Positions 8,288 through 55,097 of a stretch of 64,000 nt of DNA are shown in pieces. Source of the DNA: Candidatus Methanomethylicaceae archaeon. GTDB taxonomy: Archaea; Thermoproteota; Methanomethylicia; Methanomethylicales; Methanomethylicaceae. The DNA is taken from the NCBI GenBank assembly GCA_015660995.1, contig JACTUC010000008.1, positions 10,645 to 74,644 on the forward strand. The letters are read 5' to 3'. A program made the translations under genes and the position numbers. Every line of letters begins with the position of its first letter. Within the stretch, counting starts at the first letter, position 1. Below the pieces are notes generated by a model. It saw nothing but the letters and a program-made list of their open reading frames with translations. It made no database searches and had not been told where the DNA came from.

Positions 8288-8392
8288 GGGCCGGTAGCTC
8301 AGACTGGCAGAGCGCCCGCTTGGCATTGCGGGCATGCAGCCTCCGCACCAAAGTGCGGGAGGCCACGGGTTCAAATCCCGTCCGGTCCACCA
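8288..8392 (+). tRNA. tRNA-Ala (anticodon GGC) with a 28-nt intron between positions 37/38; CCA encoded
   Basis: Acceptor GGGCCGG/CCGGTCC gives the G3:U70 Ala identity pair, with A73. The D-arm is GCTC-AGACTGGCA-GAGC. Anticodon stem CCCGC/GCGGG only pairs after removing 8326-8353. T-arm is ACGGG-TTCAAAT-CCCGT. Confidence 0.75.
8326..8353 (+). other. Putative tRNA-Ala intron (canonical 37/38 position)
   Basis: TTGCGGGCATGCAGCCTCCGCACCAAAG. Removing it restores a 7-nt anticodon loop TTGGCAT. Contains a hairpin that could contribute to a bulge-helix-bulge. Confidence 0.6.
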
Positions 8393-17462: not shown

Positions 17463-17557
17463 GCTCCGGTAGTATAGTCCGGTCAAGTATACTGGCCTCT
17501 CGAGCATCAAAGCAGAGAAAGTCAGTGACACGGGTTCGAATCCCGTCCGGAGCACCA
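17463..17557 (+). tRNA. tRNA-Glu (anticodon CUC) with about 17-nt intron at 37/38; CCA encoded
   Basis: Acceptor GCTCCGG/CCGGAGC plus A73, and the characteristic Glu D-arm GTAT-AGTCCGGTCAA-GTAT. Anticodon stem CTGGC/GTCAG closes only after removing 17503-17519, giving loop CTCTCGA. T-arm is ACGGG-TTCGAAT-CCCGT. Confidence 0.7.
17503..17519 (+). other. Putative tRNA-Glu intron
   Basis: AGCATCAAAGCAGAGAA. Its 3' part (AGAG) can pair with the CTCT of the anticodon loop as expected for a BHB. The exact boundary is ambiguous by one A. Confidence 0.55.
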
Positions 17558-45588: not shown

Positions 45589-46533
45589 TTGTATATTTTG
45601 GTGGAGTTGTACGTCGGCGCAGGGGGATGGGCTTACTTCATAGTTCCAGATGAGAGCCCTTTAAAGGCCTACTCGAAGACTTTCAACTTCGTAGAAGTGA
45701 ACTCGACTTTTTACGAAATCCCTCAACCCGGTGCTGCAGACGCTTGGAGGAGGGCAGTGCCGCAGTCATTCAGGTTCGCAGTGAGGGCCAATAAGGCGAT
45801 AACCCACAACGATCCATTCGCGCCTTCGCCGGAATCTGAAGACGCACTGCAGGCTACTTTGGAGGTATGCCAAGCGCTAAAGGCAGACGTGCTCCACTTC
45901 CAGACCCCCCAATCATTCAGGATTGGCGATATCGAAGCAAAGCGGATAGGCGATTTCTTCAGTACACTGAATGCGGGCAGCATGCTCTTGGCACTGGAGG
46001 TGAGGGGCGCTTCAGGCGGGGATCTTCCCCATAGCCTAGTAAAGGCAATGCAGGACAATTATATTATCCACTGCGTCGACCTACTGAAAGGCGAAGCGCC
46101 GGCATATGCCGCCGACACACTCTACACCAGAACCTTCGGCAAGGGTGATCACAACATATACCAACCCGATGATGGTGAGCTCAAGGCGGTACATATGACT
46201 GCTTCCATGTACACGAAAGCATACGTGGCCTCCCACAGCGCTAAAATGTACTCAGACGCTGCAAGGCTGATCACATTTGGCAAGACCGGCAAATTCCCCA
46301 TGGTAACCAAGTGCACAGGGCTGAATTCGCTGACTTCTGTCTTGGAAGAGGACGCCAAGTTCCCAGCGACTAAGGACGAGCTGATAAAGAGGCAGGGATG
46401 GAAGCTCTATGACGCATCGGAGGAAGTGAGGGTCAGGGCCGAGGAGCCGCTGAGTAAGCTGCCAGACAGGACTTATGGCAATGTAAATGACCTCTTGCAA
46501 GAACTACATTATCAGGGAGGCGGGGCAGTCTGA
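45589..46533 (+). CDS. DUF72 (UPF0759) family protein, divergent paralogue
   Basis: VGAGGWAY...NSTFYEIP aligns to the DUF72 N-terminal GTSGWSY...STFY motif of the next gene. Confidence 0.6.
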   Translation: MYILVELYVGAGGWAYFIVPDESPLKAYSKTFNFVEVNSTFYEIPQPGAADAWRRAVPQSFRFAVRANKAITHNDPFAPSPESEDALQATLEVCQALKADVLHFQTPQSFRIGDIEAKRIGDFFSTLNAGSMLLALEVRGASGGDLPHSLVKAMQDNYIIHCVDLLKGEAPAYAADTLYTRTFGKGDHNIYQPDDGELKAVHMTASMYTKAYVASHSAKMYSDAARLITFGKTGKFPMVTKCTGLNSLTSVLEEDAKFPATKDELIKRQGWKLYDASEEVRVRAEEPLSKLPDRTYGNVNDLLQELHYQGGGAV

Positions 46534-46547
46534 CTGGCAGGATCCTT

Positions 46548-47399
46548 TTGGGCACGTCCGGCTGGAGCTACAAAGAGTGGGTGGGCCCATTCTATGAGAA
46601 TGACGAGGAGAGTAAGCTCAGAGCCTACACCGAAGTCTTCGGGACGGCAGAGATCGATTCCACATTCTACGCCTACCCTGCAAAGGGTCTTGTCATGGGT
46701 TGGAAGATGAATACGCCCGAAAAGTTTCTTTTTACGGCAAAGCTCCCAAAGGTCATAACGCATGAGAAGATGCTTGATCTCTCGCAGGGTGCGGATCAGG
46801 ACCTGATGAGGTTCGTTGATCTGATGGCGCCTCTTGCCGGGGCTAATAAGCTTGGGTGCCTTCTGATACAGCTCCCGCCAAGCTTCAGCTATGACCCCGG
46901 CAGGCTGGAAGCCTTCTTCAAGGTTATGCCCAAGGGGGTCAGGTTCGCCGCAGAGTTCCGCAACAAATCATGGATGAGAGATGAGACGTGGGAGCTCCTT
47001 AAGGGATACAACGTGGCCTATGTCAATGTGGACGAGCCCCTGCTCCCTCCTGAGGTGCACATAACAGCTGACTTTGCCTACTTCAGGTGGCACGGGCATG
47101 GGAAGAATGTCTGGTTCGACTACAGCTACAGCAAGGAAGAGTTGGAGCCGTGGGTGCTAAAGGTGAAGGAGGTTACCGGAAAAGTGAAGGAGGTCTACGG
47201 CTACTTCAACAACCATTTCCATGGTTATGCAGTTGAGAACTGTTTGCAGGTGATGGAAATGCTAGGGGTAGCGGGTGATGCCCAGAGGGACGCAAAAGAA
47301 AAGATCGAGTCATACAGAGTTTCCTCCGAAAATATCAAAGACAAGACCAAGCATAAGGGGAAAGCTGGGGGAACTCTGGACGTTTTCATGAAAAAATGA
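46548..47399 (+). CDS. DUF72 (UPF0759, YecE-like) family protein
   Basis: Canonical MGTSGWSYKEWVGPFY N-terminus and TIM-barrel-like length. Confidence 0.75.
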   Translation: MGTSGWSYKEWVGPFYENDEESKLRAYTEVFGTAEIDSTFYAYPAKGLVMGWKMNTPEKFLFTAKLPKVITHEKMLDLSQGADQDLMRFVDLMAPLAGANKLGCLLIQLPPSFSYDPGRLEAFFKVMPKGVRFAAEFRNKSWMRDETWELLKGYNVAYVNVDEPLLPPEVHITADFAYFRWHGHGKNVWFDYSYSKEELEPWVLKVKEVTGKVKEVYGYFNNHFHGYAVENCLQVMEMLGVAGDAQRDAKEKIESYRVSSENIKDKTKHKGKAGGTLDVFMKK

Positions 47400-49322: not shown

Positions 49323-52300
49323 TTGCAACTGGTGTCTCGTTCCAAATTTGACTCATTCAACTCATTCATCAGACGCTTCCATCGGCAGATAATAATTGTC
49401 TGGGTCGTGGCGCTTGTGTTCTCGGCTGCGGTGATACCTAGCTTCTTCTCTGGCGTCTCCTATAACATCACTACCCTGGCCAGCTCAGGAGCCCCCCAGA
49501 ACACAGAGTCTCAGATCGCCCAGAACATATTGGACGCACAGTTTCCCTCCTCTAACGGTAGCGGAGACAATAGCATCATACTGGTTATCCAGAACCCGAC
49601 CCCCGGCCTATACTCGGATGCCGTGAAGAACGCTGTCCTCCAGCTCGAACGCACCGTAGGATCCGATCCCAGCCAGGTCAACTATACAGGTGCATCGAGC
49701 ATCTATTCGACCGAGAGCGATCTTCTGAACTCCTCGCTGCCTGGTTTCATCCAGGGCGTGGCGTCCATGGACTCCAACATCACCGCGGTCAACCAGGCCG
49801 TCTTCTCCTTGGAGCAGAACCTTTCGGCCCTCAGCTCCGGCCTCTTCCAGCTGGCGCAGGGGATAAGCCAGACATCTCAGCTGGTCTACGGCATACCCAC
49901 TGCCTTCGTTGGGATCTGGGGTGGAATAGTAGGCGCTGGAGAGACGAACATGACCATCGCCAACCAGGAGGCCAACGCGACCATCTTCGCCCAGACGGGC
50001 AACTTCGGTGGCGACCAGCAGTCAGTGGGATACTATACCGCCTTCTTCGCCTATTGGAGCGCGAGCTTCCAGACAGCCCCCACCCTCACGCCGCTCCAGA
50101 GGGAGGCAGCTGCCATCAGCGGAGCAGTCACCCAGCTAACCTCCAGCCCCTACCTGGACAATGCAACAAAGGTCCTGATCCTAAGCGTGGCCAACGGGCT
50201 CAACGTAACCAGCTGGAACCAGGCCAGCGCCCTAGGTAACCTTACGGTAGAAACATTCGCATCTCAGGTGCCGAGCAGCCTAACCTCGTCCCTTGGCGTT
50301 ACGCCCAGCGACCTCGTGGCCAGCCTCTACAGCCTAGGTCCTTCTCCGTCAGTCGCGGCCCTCACCAACCTTACCATCCCCCTCATCGCGAACGCCTTCG
50401 GCGGCTCCTCCGCGCCCATAGCTGGTTTCTCGATCACTGACTTGGTCGCAGCCTCCTCCTCCCTTGGGCCTTCGCCCAGCCAGAGCGCTGTTTGGAACCT
50501 GGCGGCAGAGTTCTTCTCAAATACGACGGCGAGCGCCCTTGAGGCATCGCCCCTCTTTACGGTCAATGCGACCTCCCTCAGTGGCCTCCTCTCGGGCCTC
50601 AGTCCCTCCAGCTCTGCTGCCCAGCTAGCGAGCGCAATAGACGCCGTAGTATATAATGAGAGCTTCTCCAACTATCCCCTTGTACTCTCAAGGTCCCTGA
50701 CTCAGAACTTCGTGGGGACAGAGAATGACACCATGATTGTCGTGTTTAGTTACTCTTCAACTCTTAGTCCCGACACCCTCGCAGGGTTCCAGCAGGACGT
50801 GAAGAGCTCAGACCTCTCATCAATGGCGACGACCTACGTCACCGGCGGGGCTGTGATCAGCCATGATTTTGAAGACGCCTTCAGCCCCGTCATTGGAGCG
50901 ATCTCGAGCGTCGGAATCGTTGCCTCCATAATTATCGCCATAATCCTCTTCGGGGCACCCCTTGCGGCCATCCTTCCGCTGCTTCTCGGGGGCATCTCCA
51001 TAGTTATCGGCTACGCAGCCATCTACCTTGGCGTGGTGGTAGCCGGAAGCGGCAAGATAACCTTCCTCACACCTACACTGGCTACGCTCATCATGCTGGG
51101 CCTAGCCGTTGACTACTCTGTCCTTCAGCTCCGAAGGATGAAGGAGGAGAGGGCCAAGGGAAAGTCAAAGGAGGAGAGCGTGGCCACATCGGTCAGATGG
51201 TCCGGCCAGGCCGTGCTTACTGCAGGGATTACCGTCGTCGTAGCCTACGTCATCCTGGCGGTGGTGAACGTGCCCATATTCAACGACGTCGGCGTAGCCA
51301 TAGCCCTGGGGGTCTCCATCCTTCTTCTGGCGTCGGTGACGCTGCTTCCGTCCCTTGAGCTGCTACTTGGGGACCGCCTCTTCTGGCCTCGCCTAAAGGT
51401 TAACAGTCACGAATCAAAGCCTGGCCGCCTAGCAAGGGTATCCGATGCTACCCTCAAGAGAAAGGTGGCAGTCACGGTGGTGATATCGCTCTTCGCTGTC
51501 TGCGCGGTCGCAGCTGTGGCCAGCACCCCCACGGGGCTCGACATTCTGAAGCTCATCCCGAACACCCAGAGCAACCAGGGCCTGACGGTCATGACGAACA
51601 GCCTGGGCGGTGGAACCATCTCCCCCACATCGATTCTGGTCACAATGCCCTCCGCCATAGTCTACGGAGACAACCAGTTTAACCAGACGCTACTGAACCA
51701 GATCGAGCTCATATCGTCCAAGGTAGCTGGCTCCTCAGGCGTGGTTAGCGTAACGGGCCCCACCAGGCCCTATGGATCTTCATTCAATTTCTCGTCCATA
51801 GGGGAGATGCCTGAGCCCATCCTCTCCCAGTACCTAGACGGCATGCTCTCCTACATAGGAAAGGACAACACCACAGCGCTCATATCCGTCGGATTCAATT
51901 CTCCCATGATGAGCGCCCAGTCCGTCGCTTCACTGGATAAATTAGAGTCCCAAGTGAAGTCCACATCCCTCATTAATGGGGTCGTTGTGCATTATGGCGG
52001 AGAGGCTTCCCAGACGAAGGATAATGAGCAGTTCATAAATGGGCTGATACCGGAGATCTTGATCATCCTCTCCATAGCGGTCTACCTGATCCTGTTCTTC
52101 CAACTAAGGTCCGCCTTTACGCCCCTCAGGCTTATCTTCACCATCCTCTGCAGCGCGGCCTTCTCTCTGGCCCTGCTTGACTTCACCTTTACTTACATAC
52201 TGAAGCTGCCCGTGCTCAACTTCGTGGCACTCTTCGTGATAGTGACCATGCTGGGCGTCGGCATTGACTACGACATCTTCTATGTTACGAGAATACGAGA

Positions 52301-52595
52301 GGAGATCCTGAACGGGAAGACCGACGACGAAGCGATCAAGACTGCCACAACCAAAGTCTGGGTAACCATCTTCGGCCTAGGACTTATACTTGCGAGCATC
52401 TTCGCCTCCCTTCTGGTGACTGGAATCCCCGTGCTCGAGGAGATCGGCCTGGCGGTTGGGGCGGCCGTGCTGATCGACGTCTCGGTGGTCATCCTCTTCT
52501 TCGTGCCGTCCTTGATGGCCCTGGCCGAGAGGTTCAACTGGTGGCCATCCAAGATCGGAAGAAGCTCTGACAAGACGACTCCATCGAAAAGCTAA
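49323..52595 (+). CDS. MMPL/RND-superfamily giant membrane exporter
   Basis: 1090 aa. TM1, an extracytoplasmic domain of about 480 aa, 5 TM helices, a second extracytoplasmic domain and 5-6 TM helices (duplicated RND topology). Markedly higher GC than its neighbours. Confidence 0.7.
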   Translation: MQLVSRSKFDSFNSFIRRFHRQIIIVWVVALVFSAAVIPSFFSGVSYNITTLASSGAPQNTESQIAQNILDAQFPSSNGSGDNSIILVIQNPTPGLYSDAVKNAVLQLERTVGSDPSQVNYTGASSIYSTESDLLNSSLPGFIQGVASMDSNITAVNQAVFSLEQNLSALSSGLFQLAQGISQTSQLVYGIPTAFVGIWGGIVGAGETNMTIANQEANATIFAQTGNFGGDQQSVGYYTAFFAYWSASFQTAPTLTPLQREAAAISGAVTQLTSSPYLDNATKVLILSVANGLNVTSWNQASALGNLTVETFASQVPSSLTSSLGVTPSDLVASLYSLGPSPSVAALTNLTIPLIANAFGGSSAPIAGFSITDLVAASSSLGPSPSQSAVWNLAAEFFSNTTASALEASPLFTVNATSLSGLLSGLSPSSSAAQLASAIDAVVYNESFSNYPLVLSRSLTQNFVGTENDTMIVVFSYSSTLSPDTLAGFQQDVKSSDLSSMATTYVTGGAVISHDFEDAFSPVIGAISSVGIVASIIIAIILFGAPLAAILPLLLGGISIVIGYAAIYLGVVVAGSGKITFLTPTLATLIMLGLAVDYSVLQLRRMKEERAKGKSKEESVATSVRWSGQAVLTAGITVVVAYVILAVVNVPIFNDVGVAIALGVSILLLASVTLLPSLELLLGDRLFWPRLKVNSHESKPGRLARVSDATLKRKVAVTVVISLFAVCAVAAVASTPTGLDILKLIPNTQSNQGLTVMTNSLGGGTISPTSILVTMPSAIVYGDNQFNQTLLNQIELISSKVAGSSGVVSVTGPTRPYGSSFNFSSIGEMPEPILSQYLDGMLSYIGKDNTTALISVGFNSPMMSAQSVASLDKLESQVKSTSLINGVVVHYGGEASQTKDNEQFINGLIPEILIILSIAVYLILFFQLRSAFTPLRLIFTILCSAAFSLALLDFTFTYILKLPVLNFVALFVIVTMLGVGIDYDIFYVTRIREEILNGKTDDEAIKTATTKVWVTIFGLGLILASIFASLLVTGIPVLEEIGLAVGAAVLIDVSVVILFFVPSLMALAERFNWWPSKIGRSSDKTTPSKS

Positions 52596-52673: not shown

Positions 52674-52949
52674 GTGCGCACACAACGCACGCGCGAATTT
52701 ATATACAATGAAGCTTTACTAATGATGGAGTTCTTTGAAATGGCAGAAAAAGGAAAAACTACTGACAACCGCAGCATGCATGTAACCATTCTGGGCGTAC
52801 TAGGAATACTCTTCGCGATCATTGGAGCAGCAATAATTGCTATTCCTGGTATGCCTGGGCGAGGCTCAGGTATAGGCACTGGCTTAGTTGTGATAGGTGT
52901 CGTGCTGCTGGTCATTGCTTTCTTAAGGCTTTACTACAAGCGCCCATAA
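52674..52949 (+). CDS. Small two-TM membrane protein
   Basis: ILGVLGILFAIIGAAIIAI and GLVVIGVVLLVIAFL helices. Start may be the internal MAEKG. Confidence 0.35.
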   Translation: MRTQRTREFIYNEALLMMEFFEMAEKGKTTDNRSMHVTILGVLGILFAIIGAAIIAIPGMPGRGSGIGTGLVVIGVVLLVIAFLRLYYKRP

Positions 52950-53146: not shown

Positions 53147-54829
53147 TCAAGGATTATCAGCATCAGCTGACGAGTACTTTTCAAGTGTATGTCTAACAAT
53201 ATGAATCATCTTCGAAGTTAGGAATGGTAAGAATGGTATCAGATATCTAATGTTCTTCGCTTTTGCAACAACTTCGCCACTATTCTCACTACGATAGCCG
53301 GTGAGGAAGGCTTCAGCGACAAGCTTTATGCCTTCCTCCCTCGTTTTGTTATCCTTCTTCTCTCCTTTCTTCTCCAGGCGCGTTGCAGAAAAATAGAGAA
53401 ATTCGGCGAGGTCCCAAGCCCTATCGCCGTTCTCCACAGCCTGCTCAAGGTCTAGAAGATCTATTCCATCCTTACCCACGAGCGCGTTCCCTGGCTTCGT
53501 ATCTCCGTACACCAAGCCAGCCTTGTGCAGTTTACCCAATATCTTGCCATATTTTGCGATGTTGCTCGTGTCTGTACTTTTCCCACTGATTATCTCCTCG
53601 ACGAATTTTGAGAGCGGGGTGCCATTGACATACTCTGTTACCAGGGTCCTTTCGTCTAGAACAATGCCGATTATATCGTGAGTTTTGATTCCGAGTTCAT
53701 TCAGCCGTCTGACACCTTCGACCTCTCTGTTCAGTCTTGAGAGAGGGCTCTGGTTGAATCTCTTGGCGACGAGTGACCAAAGATTGAGAAATGCCCACTT
53801 TATTGACTTCAGTTCGGGGAAGTGCTTGAGGACATACTTGACTCGTCTTTCATCGTCCCAGATTTCCAGCTGTTGAGTAGAGTTGATGAAATCTCCCTTT
53901 TTCTTCTGTTCGTATTCGTAAGTTTCGCCGAAGCCTCCTATTTGCGCAAGCTCTTCGATCATCTTGGTTGCATCGTCAAAGATTACCCCTTCCTCAAGTC
54001 GAAGAAGTTTGTTCGGCCGATCGAGCTCGACCATGGATTCAACCTTCCCCATCATTTTCAGCTTGGCGAGAGGCCTAGTCTTGAACCCATATCCCAACCT
54101 ATTAGCAAACCCGTGAACCACGTATCGAATGGCGCCCCTGCTCTCCAACGGAAACATTTTGTGAAGCTCAGTGAGTGCATAAATACGCTTCTTTCTCCCC
54201 CTGAAGATCCTAACAGAGTCACCGATACTCTCTATTATTCCGTTTGAAGCAAGCGATTCTGCCGCTTCTCGAAATCCTCGAAGCGTGAACTCTATGTTCT
54301 CTTTCCTCTGATCAGACGCGTAGGTGCGGGCGTAGCTGAACATCGCTTCTGGGTAGGCAAGAGCCCTCTTGTGCAGCTTATCAAAGAGAAAGTATTCGTG
54401 AGGAATGATCAAGTTTGAAGAAAAGTCGCCGTAGTCTGACTGGATCTCAATCAACTTTTCTGCTATGATTCTCTTCTTGTATTCAACCTCGACGCTCCCC
54501 AGGAACTCCGCGTTAACAATGGGTTCATAGATGTTCAGTAACCTGCCTATTACGAACTCTCCAACCGAAGGTTGCTTTGCGTCCTTCATTAGGGCCGTCT
54601 CTTCTATGATGAGTGGTGGTGACTTGGTAGGCTCTTGTTCATGCCTCTCTGCTACACTCGCATTGACGTTCTTCGCGACTATTATCATGTCATAGTCAGA
54701 ATCTTTTCTTGCATACCCCGCAACTCTTGAGCCATAGGCGCAGAGGGAATAGATCTCCTCTTTCTTGACCAATAACTCGGCGAGAGCGAGAATCTTGGAT
54801 CTCTCCATGTCAGTAAGCTTGCTGTTCAA
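53147..54829 (-). CDS. Fusion protein: N-terminal minimal nucleotidyltransferase domain + C-terminal RIO/Bud32-like atypical kinase domain
   Basis: The N-terminal CAYGSRVAGYARKDSDYDMIIV matches the GS...DxD nucleotidyltransferase fold. The C-terminal LHKAGLVYGDTKPGNALV...GIDLLDLEQAV matches the catalytic and metal-binding loops of RIO/Bud32/Kdo-type kinases. Confidence 0.6.
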   Translation of the reverse strand: MNSKLTDMERSKILALAELLVKKEEIYSLCAYGSRVAGYARKDSDYDMIIVAKNVNASVAERHEQEPTKSPPLIIEETALMKDAKQPSVGEFVIGRLLNIYEPIVNAEFLGSVEVEYKKRIIAEKLIEIQSDYGDFSSNLIIPHEYFLFDKLHKRALAYPEAMFSYARTYASDQRKENIEFTLRGFREAAESLASNGIIESIGDSVRIFRGRKKRIYALTELHKMFPLESRGAIRYVVHGFANRLGYGFKTRPLAKLKMMGKVESMVELDRPNKLLRLEEGVIFDDATKMIEELAQIGGFGETYEYEQKKKGDFINSTQQLEIWDDERRVKYVLKHFPELKSIKWAFLNLWSLVAKRFNQSPLSRLNREVEGVRRLNELGIKTHDIIGIVLDERTLVTEYVNGTPLSKFVEEIISGKSTDTSNIAKYGKILGKLHKAGLVYGDTKPGNALVGKDGIDLLDLEQAVENGDRAWDLAEFLYFSATRLEKKGEKKDNKTREEGIKLVAEAFLTGYRSENSGEVVAKAKNIRYLIPFLPFLTSKMIHIVRHTLEKYSSADADNP

Positions 54830-55097
54830 ATCTTCATCTCCTCTGGCCGGTCTGGTTCAAGTATTCGTTTCACCCTAATCTTAGTCTTCCGTATGCTATC
54901 CTTCGTGCTCATTAAATTTTAGCCCCAAACCCACTAACTACTATTCTACTGGTAAGATAGGGAAATGAAACTCCATCAGCTTCAAGAGAGCCACCATCAA
55001 TAGAACGCTCTTAGTTGAACTAAGAGAACTCTGCTTGTCATCAAAAAGAGAGATGGGAAATGCAGAGTTATTAACAACTTGAAGTCTATTTATTGCC

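Follow-up and report, generated by a model that had tools for sequence, protein, structure and literature searches.

The question raised by this locus is what a single archaeal polypeptide that combines a nucleotidyltransferase (NTase) with a kinase may be used for, and whether its two chemistries belong to one reaction. The gene lies at 53147..54829 on the minus strand of a 64,000-nucleotide stretch of DNA from a Candidatus Methanomethylicaceae archaeon (contig JACTUC010000008.1), the whole of which was analysed and is referred to here as the window. The open reading frame (ORF) proposed in an earlier note made from the sequence alone was borne out, being complete and encoding 560 amino acids (aa) and a stop codon from a TTG start. 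Our answer, to which we give about an even chance of being right, is that the protein is a cytoplasmic, monocistronic two-module enzyme in which the kinase is the constant element and the NTase a separable one, with the translation apparatus as the likely field of action.

The exact protein is held in the public databases as MGA2573314.1 (locus ABSF36_03770), from a metagenome-assembled genome (MAG) of a Candidatus Methanomethylicaceae archaeon, on a contig of 285 kb, where NCBI names it ‘hypothetical protein’; the identical protein sequence is present on three contigs. The start codon is ambiguous, since an alternative ATG start at M8 giving 553 aa was chosen by the annotators of members of the same 90%-identity cluster. 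Residues are numbered here on the 560-aa form, and all gene features lie on the minus strand. A whole-chain AlphaFold2 model built with 81 homologues was confident (pLDDT 86.8, pTM 0.87) and splits the protein into three parts, namely an NTase module (residues 1-260), a linker (261-300) and a kinase (301-560).

The NTase core (residues 1-145; 54395..54829) was identified as being of the Pol-beta type using Pfam, the secondary structure of the model and Foldseek. It is modelled with a helix at residues 7-20, strands at 26-32, 47-52, 73-76, 101-105 and 140-143, and a long helix at 107-139. Pfam matches of the window protein at residues 16-57 fell just below threshold (Polbeta, 26.8 bits with a cutoff of 26.9; NTP_transf_2, 20.1 bits with a cutoff of 21), while 60 and 48, respectively, of 81 aligned relatives matched these families at E<=0.01. 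The minimal-NTase motif is present in the translation as G33-S34 followed by D45-Y-D47 (GSRVAGYARKDSDYD, 54689..54733; quoted in the earlier note as YGSRVAGYARKDSDYD, which was located at residues 32-47), and together with E76 (54602..54604) it forms an NTase centre that is intact in the window protein. E76 ends strand 73-76, and its position is occupied by D or E in 152 of 181 members; from its place in the modelled fold it is probably the third metal-binding carboxylate. Position 76 was preferred to E102, a candidate that was dropped because hydrophobic residues replace E102 in members whose DxD is intact.

A separate model of residues 1-300 (pLDDT 82.9) was compared with known structures using Foldseek. 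ANT(4’)/kanamycin nucleotidyltransferase (KNTase) was matched with an E-value of 1e-4, with further matches to Hailong HalB, AadA/ANT(9) and LinB, and with MNT antitoxins matched for the core only. The alpha/beta core fold of NTases was recovered with a Foldseek probability of 0.9-1.0 to ANT(4’), Tam41, HalB, HI0073 and MNT antitoxins. The best superposition of the N-terminal 300 residues was obtained with Tam41 (TM-score 0.39-0.42, root-mean-square deviation (rmsd) of about 7 Å, approximately 281-295 columns). The ANT(4’)/AadA/LinB group aligned over approximately 270-300 columns (E 1e-4 to 1e-2) with a TM-score of 0.23-0.29 and an rmsd of about 14 Å, and these low TM-scores indicate that the domain orientation differs from that of the group.

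Residues 146-260 (54050..54394) were modelled as a basic helical domain (pI 10.2) with a beta-hairpin at residues 200-207. On the model and its Foldseek matches, this region is an NTase companion domain like that of KNTase/ANT and the winged-helix domain of Tam41, so that residues 1-260 constitute a two-domain NTase of the KNTase/ANT/Tam41 type, in which the Pol-beta core is followed by this basic helical domain. Tam41 consists of an NTase domain and a winged-helix domain with a CTP (nucleoside triphosphate, NTP) pocket between them (PMC7018664). The segment that follows, residues 261-300 (53930..54049), can be described as a linker or as an N-terminal extension of the kinase, with P272, G281 and A295 invariant in the alignment of 81 sequences. 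A middle region of about 300 aa had previously been described as matching nothing; most of it is now accounted for by the companion domain, the conserved 40-residue linker and the N-lobe of the kinase.

The kinase domain (residues 301-560; 53150..53929) was modelled with N-lobe strands at residues 305-336, helix C at 362-378 and a C-lobe that has no activation segment. The NCBIfam model arch_bud32 (TIGR03724) was matched with an E-value of 1.8e-12 and 47.2 bits, against a curated cutoff of 125, and other Bud32 models (NF011460-NF011464, NF007174) gave 14-36 bits against cutoffs of 174-447. Using Pfam, residues 330-481 matched RIO1 (20.6 bits, cutoff 22) and Pkinase (19.8 bits, cutoff 31.7) below threshold, and APH, WaaY, ABC1 and Kdo more weakly. 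Among the 81 relatives, RIO1 was matched by 72, Kdo by 58, Pkinase by 56 and APH by 38, at the same E-value limit as above. The closest PDB chains by sequence were of the Bud32/PRPK type (9x4g_B, 1e-6 with the single sequence and 1e-9 with a profile). Foldseek against the PDB likewise matched residues 300-556, approximately, to PRPK/Bud32 structures (7sza, 6wqx, 3en9, 8unk) with an E-value of 3e-7 over about 250 columns, followed by 5-methylthioribose kinase (about 380 columns), the Kae1-Bud32 fusion MJ1130 and Rio2 (1zar/1zao).

The kinase centre is intact in the window protein and comprises K335, E369, D443, K445, N448 and D460, which include the catalytic core set of Hanks-type kinases (beta-3 lysine, helix-C glutamate, catalytic aspartate and asparagine, and metal-binding aspartate). 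K335 (53825..53827), the ATP-anchoring lysine of strand beta-3, is invariant in the family. The catalytic loop YGDTKPGN (D443, K445, N448; 53486..53509) lies within the previously quoted peptide LHKAGLVYGDTKPGNALV (residues 434-451), and the metal-binding loop DLEQ (D460, E462, Q463; 53441..53452), recognised by conservation in the translation, occupies the position of the DFG motif within IDLLDLEQAV (residues 456-465). The lysine-proline of the GDTKPxN loop is as in protein Ser/Thr kinases and not of the APH type, and the D-x-x-Q-A-V type of metal loop is RIO-like. The helix-F aspartate, D473, stands only 13 residues past D460, leaving no activation segment; one with an APE motif is absent, and the Pkinase threshold was not reached. 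Judging by the model, residues 301-560 form a full atypical kinase fold of the RIO/Bud32 clan without an activation segment. The C-terminal kinase was thus correctly recognised from the sequence, and the PRPK/Bud32 fold match tells against the possibility, raised with that proposal, that this part has no kinase fold; its extent of about 120 aa was too small, the domain covering about 260 aa.

A search of a large protein database returned 358 relatives, nearly all of which were full-length (540-600 aa) and from archaeal metagenomes, and an exhaustive profile search returned 206 clusters at 50% identity with E<=1e-30. When one genome per species was scanned, relatives were found in approximately 305 of 185,579 species genomes, all of them MAGs from few lineages (labelled Nitrososphaeria/Nitrososphaerales, Conexivisphaerales, Gagatemarchaeum, Bathyarchaeia and Methanomassiliicoccales). 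No relatives were found among phage and plasmid records or IMG/VR contigs. The family is uncharacterised and confined to archaea, and its members appear in databases as ‘hypothetical’, ‘LPS kinase InaA family’ or ‘Bud32/predicted nucleotidyltransferase’, the last of these being used by JGI along with ‘tRNA A-37 threonylcarbamoyl transferase component Bud32’.

The two active centres were found to differ in how they are conserved. In the alignment of 81 sequences, K335, D443, K445, N448 and D460-L-E-Q463 are invariant, while position 34 is occupied by S in 64 sequences and by P in the other 17, and D is found at positions 45 and 47 in 65 sequences each. This was followed in an extended set of 181 full-length members, reaching down to about 20% identity, in which the state of the NTase could be scored for 179. 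K335, E369 and D473 were conserved in 100% of the set and D443, K445, N448, D460, E462 and Q463 in 83-100%, in NTase-intact and NTase-degenerate members alike. The NTase motif G-[SG]...[DE]x[DE] was kept in 127 of the 179 and was degenerate in the remaining 52. In those 52, approximately 40 further residues across the NTase core and the helical domain are lost in concert (for example Y32, G38, Y39, S44, Y46, F92, G95, R96 and P143, and R155, Y159, S165, Y166, N178, H239 and K256), while a smaller set, including D83, Y101, E114, K118, R120, E124, Y146, F147, P160 and P272, persists despite the loss of DxD. The window protein keeps the full residue set. As read from the alignment, this pattern of co-decay marks a genuine active site that was lost as a unit with its fold retained. 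Parsimony on a neighbour-joining tree gave at least nine changes of NTase state from an intact root, with several losses within the clade of the window protein.

Since the kinase centre is almost never lost and the NTase centre has disappeared repeatedly, the family appears to have the kinase as its core activity. The occurrence of 52 NTase-dead members with an intact kinase also means that coupling of the two chemistries is not obligatory. That one polypeptide could both nucleotidylate and phosphorylate a target, as had been suggested, is possible for the window protein, in which both centres are intact, but is no general rule for the family.

Two further observations were made on individual members. 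At L024:3063-4866 two overlapping ORFs, of 320 and 316 aa, stand in place of a single homologue, owing either to pseudogene formation by a frameshift or to an error in sequencing. Two paralogues were found in each of several genomes, at the locus pairs L019 and L079 (CAVRAG010000007.1), L032 and L055 (PLUF01), L016 and L048 (CAWCLN01), and L036 and L087 (DATFYP01). The identities of these paralogues suggest one of the window’s own type, clade A (49-57% to the window protein), and one of a sister type, clade B (approximately 39-42%).

Comparison with known systems indicated that the protein is a new architectural variant of known folds, related to the RIO/Bud32-clan kinases and to the NTases of the KNTase/Tam41 type. 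Bud32/PRPK is the closest kinase by both sequence and fold, and both are small and without an activation segment. Bud32 has been described joined to an N-terminal enzyme in Kae1-Bud32 fusions (PMC5007285), and in MJ1130, as in the window protein, the kinase is C-terminal to a nucleotide-using enzyme. However, the window protein scores far under the curated Bud32 cutoffs, its GDTKPGN loop is not of the Bud32 type, its metal loop is DLEQA and not DFG-like, and its N-terminal partner is an NTase and not Kae1. Its family is also taxonomically restricted with two paralogues in some genomes, whereas Bud32 is universal and single-copy in archaea. No Kae1 (Peptidase_M22) was found in the Pfam-annotated genes of seven loci or in the annotated recurrent gene clusters, which represent the scanned part of the neighbours at 87 loci. 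As for RIO kinases, RIO1 is the Pfam family matched by most members, and Rio2, in which a helical or winged-helix-like region precedes the kinase as it does here, was matched by fold; unlike them, the window protein falls narrowly below the RIO1 threshold and carries an extra NTase module of 260 aa. The conserved neighbourhood of archaeal RIO genes, with a KH-domain protein and aIF-1A (PMC5007285), was absent from the window and related loci.

On the NTase side, ANT(4’)/KNTase, AadA/ANT(9) and LinB share the Pol-beta core with a C-terminal helical domain and the GS and DxD motifs, but have no kinase fusion, and the ANT_9 model gave the window protein 13.2 bits against a cutoff of 340. Only one of the 81 members matched Pfam Adenyl_transf, and no membership of an ANT sequence family was found. 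Tam41, the mitochondrial and Firmicutes CDP-diacylglycerol synthase (Tam41/Mmp37), shares the arrangement of an NTase with a second domain and superposes best overall, but with only 10-12% identity; it has no kinase, the window protein lacks its C-terminal membrane-binding segment and has the kinase after the helical domain instead, and none of the 81 members matched Pfam Tam41. A further likeness is offered by TglT-TakA (Rv1045-Rv1044), MNT/HEPN and HalB, where a second activity accompanies or regulates a protein of the NTase fold, HalB and MNT antitoxins being matched by fold. Those systems are two-gene, mobile and conflict-related, and TakA is not of the RIO/Bud32 type, in contrast to the window protein, a single chain for which neither a partner nor any association with mobile elements or viruses was found. 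The window protein missed every curated threshold applied to it for Bud32, RIO1, Pkinase, MntA and ANT. An NTase-kinase fusion was not described in a review of archaeal kinases, a classification of prokaryotic kinases, a classification of NTase folds or literature searches with combined terms.

Gene context was compared by clustering the ORFs of 87 loci. Clade A, to which the window belongs, was defined by an identity of at least 49% (24 loci), and clade B by approximately 35-49%, its members coming from MAGs of the Nitrososphaerales type; some genomes hold both. In clade B, the gene follows immediately, on the same strand, a gene for a protein of 228 aa in which an HExxH motif (AAHEFTHY) is invariant, an arrangement seen at 59 of the 87 loci. 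The HExxH gene is co-oriented with the kinase gene at L005:5315-6004 and L006:5318-6004, the two loci with called genes, where its last 4 nt are shared with the start of the kinase gene. Searches of Pfam, PADLOC and the PDB gave no relative of this partner, and no homologue of it was found in the window. Upstream, the clade B pair is flanked by genes for L7Ae, NDK, aIF5B, S6e and an AsnC-type helix-turn-helix regulator, and downstream, on the opposite strand, by genes for S27ae, S24e, DUF359, Spt4, RpoE, a PIN protein and eIF2-gamma. The pair is therefore embedded in an archaeal translation/transcription supercluster, as determined from Pfam-annotated neighbours at L005:1-13626, L006:1-13623 and other clade B loci. 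The eIF2-gamma ORFs of these two Nitrososphaerota MAGs (L005:10677-13626 and L006:10413-13589, approximately 1056 aa) were identified as intein-containing from their intein-splicing and LAGLIDADG homing-endonuclease domains.

The neighbours of clade A genes are variable and not operonic, and a co-oriented partner was never seen. In the window, the gene is flanked downstream by genes for a 91-aa membrane protein and an MMPL transporter and upstream by genes for a 135-aa protein and a methyltransferase. At other clade A loci, a four-transmembrane protein (cluster c21), PAP2, PPK2 and Metallophos recur, mostly on the opposite strand, and none of these is present in the window. The 91-aa protein (52674-52949) has two transmembrane segments, is convergent with the target gene and gave only a sub-threshold Pfam match, to the CD47 transmembrane region; it is kept beside the target in a 99%-identical contig (L001) and is absent from other clade A loci. 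At another clade A locus, a 58-aa ORF (L002:5828-6004) runs at its end into the start of the homologue. It shares 78% identity with the N-terminus of the four-transmembrane protein encoded downstream (L002:8299-8445), and the pair resembles a small local duplication on either side of the gene.

The explanation that we favour begins with the kinase. ATP hydrolysis or phosphotransfer in the manner of RIO and Bud32 would be the constant output of the family, with the domain acting as an ATPase or a kinase of low specificity on a bound macromolecular partner and not by way of a peptide-docking groove. In members of the window type, the N-terminal module would add a separable, Mg-dependent transfer of a nucleoside monophosphate (NMP), from an NTP that would sit between the core and the basic helical domain; where the NTase is dead, the same module may serve as a scaffold or binding domain only. 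The partner would be an RNA or a protein of the translation apparatus, which is considered likely on account of the roles of the nearest kinase relatives, the basic helical domain and the position of clade B within a supercluster of ribosomal-protein and initiation-factor genes. RIO and Bud32 are reportedly ATPases, acting in pre-40S maturation and, with Kae1 and tRNA, in KEOPS, respectively (PMC5007285).

Several points weigh against this explanation. The link to translation comes from clade B alone and is weak for clade A, to which the window protein belongs, and the synteny of clade B may stem from one ancestor and so amount to approximately one observation. The variable, non-operonic neighbours of clade A would be no worse a fit for chemistry on small molecules or lipid phosphates, the best-matching NTase structures (ANT, AadA, LinB and Tam41) are all small-molecule enzymes, and no member comes from a cultured organism. 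A bolder form would make the family a hitherto unrecognised class of bifunctional modification enzymes in archaea. In it, kinase and NTase would together modify one macromolecule of translation, for example by phosphorylating and nucleotidylating the end of an RNA, a ribosomal protein or an initiation factor, and clade B would employ the HExxH metalloprotein as a dedicated partner; this form is regarded as unlikely.

The main rival to a separable, translation-linked kinase and NTase is coupled activation of a small molecule, a possibility that we rate as doubtful. Here, the kinase would phosphorylate a hydroxyl group on a metabolite or on the head group of a lipid, after which the Tam41/ANT-like NTase would add NMP to that phosphate or to another hydroxyl, giving a product that is NDP-activated or doubly modified, in analogy to the kinase-plus-nucleotidyltransferase pairs acting on sugars or choline or to bifunctional ANT-APH-type modification of antibiotics. 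The N-terminal structures matched best (ANT(4’), AadA, ANT(9), LinB and Tam41) are consistent with this, as are the long alignment with 5-methylthioribose kinase, the APH matches of 38 of the 81 members, the recurrence of the PAP2 phosphatase, PPK2, Metallophos and membrane proteins beside clade A genes, and the soil and peat habitats of the host organisms. However, the loss of the NTase in 52 of 179 members with the kinase left intact shows that the two steps are not obligately coupled, the strongest kinase matches are to Bud32/PRPK and RIO and not to APH or choline kinase, and the GDTKPxN loop is not of the APH type. The recurrent neighbours are also convergent or divergent, not operonic and not present in the window, and the ANT_9 score of 13 bits lies far from its cutoff of 340.

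The remaining explanations fared less well. A conflict or toxin-antitoxin-like role, in which the NTase would act as a toxin or synthesise a signal (compare MNT/HEPN, MenT/TglT and HalB) and the fused kinase would restrain or activate it, would be in keeping with a suspected link to signalling and defence, with the fold likeness to HalB and MNT antitoxins, with a weak NCBIfam hit to MntA and with the position of the gene in the lower-GC part of the window, and it has a precedent in TakA, which neutralises the NTase toxin TglT by phosphorylating it (PMC7205606). It is nevertheless improbable, as the MntA model (NF047752) gave only 20.1 bits with a cutoff of 60, no HEPN domain or other adjacent partner was found among the neighbours and no mobile-element genes nearby, and clade B is fixed among ribosomal-protein genes. 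PADLOC returned only partial matches to the kinase domain, reflecting generic Ser/Thr-kinase similarity (to PD-T4-6, MkoA and the like, the highest score being 32.7 bits over residues 357-466), and neither partner genes nor system membership; together with the lack of relatives among phages, plasmids and IMG/VR contigs, this leaves the defence link unsupported. Furthermore, the kinase outlives the NTase, the opposite of what would be predicted for an antitoxin and its toxin. That the protein is a plain KEOPS Bud32, or a RIO orthologue, with an N-terminal extension, as the JGI name implies, is very improbable: the best sequence and fold matches are indeed to Bud32/PRPK, Kae1-Bud32 fusions offer a precedent (PMC5007285) and clade B lies beside S27ae and S24e, but the Bud32 models and RIO1 all remained below cutoff (TIGR03724 at 47 bits against 125), neither Kae1 among the Pfam-annotated neighbours nor KH/aIF-1A neighbours were found, and the family is limited to approximately 305 species genomes of few lineages, with two paralogues in some. 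An artefact in which adjacent genes were joined by a frameshift or an assembly error, for which the split homologue at L024 could be cited, has a negligible probability and is refuted by full-length conservation, given the hundreds of full-length homologues from different assemblies and relatives in about 305 genomes, along with the single-chain pTM of 0.87 and the presence of the sequence on three contigs.

The gene was proposed in the earlier note to sit in an accessory island with a copy of a palindrome just upstream (54911-54934), and neither feature was upheld. The island rests only on GC content, which is approximately 0.55 up to about 40 kb and falls to approximately 0.45 (0.41-0.50) beyond it. 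The genes of this part are ordinary metabolic and transport genes, encoding enolase, an MFS transporter, a PLP decarboxylase, a glycosyltransferase, two DUF72 proteins and DUF116, as well as an MMPL transporter, methyltransferases, SnoaL-like and LURP-one-related (LOR) proteins and an ABC transporter, and a scan of the ORFs of 120 aa or more between 38.9 and 63.3 kb found neither an integrase nor a transposase. The putative palindrome is unique in the window when up to three mismatches are allowed, shares no word of 12 nt or more with another site there and is self-complementary at only 8 of 24 positions; a search for inverted repeats found none. Nor does the window encode a paralogous kinase or NTase elsewhere.

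Other features of the window were recorded in passing. The gene for the 1090-aa MMPL transporter (49323-52595) stands out within the low-GC region with a GC content of approximately 0.58. The two DUF72 genes are adjacent paralogues (45589-46533 and 46548-47399), the first having an extra C-terminal segment that matches DUF2795 just below threshold (24.3 bits with a cutoff of 25). Two tRNA genes are unusually long, at 8288-8389 (102 nt) and 17463-17557 (92-95 nt), and are probably intron-containing archaeal tRNAs; both were reported by Rfam, and only the second by ARAGORN (tRNA-Arg, TCG).

RIO and Bud32 are ancient and essential atypical kinases of archaea, the in vivo roles of which are poorly understood. 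The family described here represents a third, lineage-restricted relative of these kinases, with an enzyme module attached, for which the database labels ‘Bud32’, ‘LPS kinase InaA family’ and ‘hypothetical protein’ are uninformative or misleading. Were the unlikely bifunctional reading to prove true, it would add a step of regulation or maturation that is new to archaeal translation. The lineages that carry the family are abundant in peat and soil, and its impact is potential rather than immediate. The same kinase occurring with a live or a dead NTase constitutes a natural experiment, which could reveal both the targets of such kinases and how an attached nucleotide-using domain modulates them.

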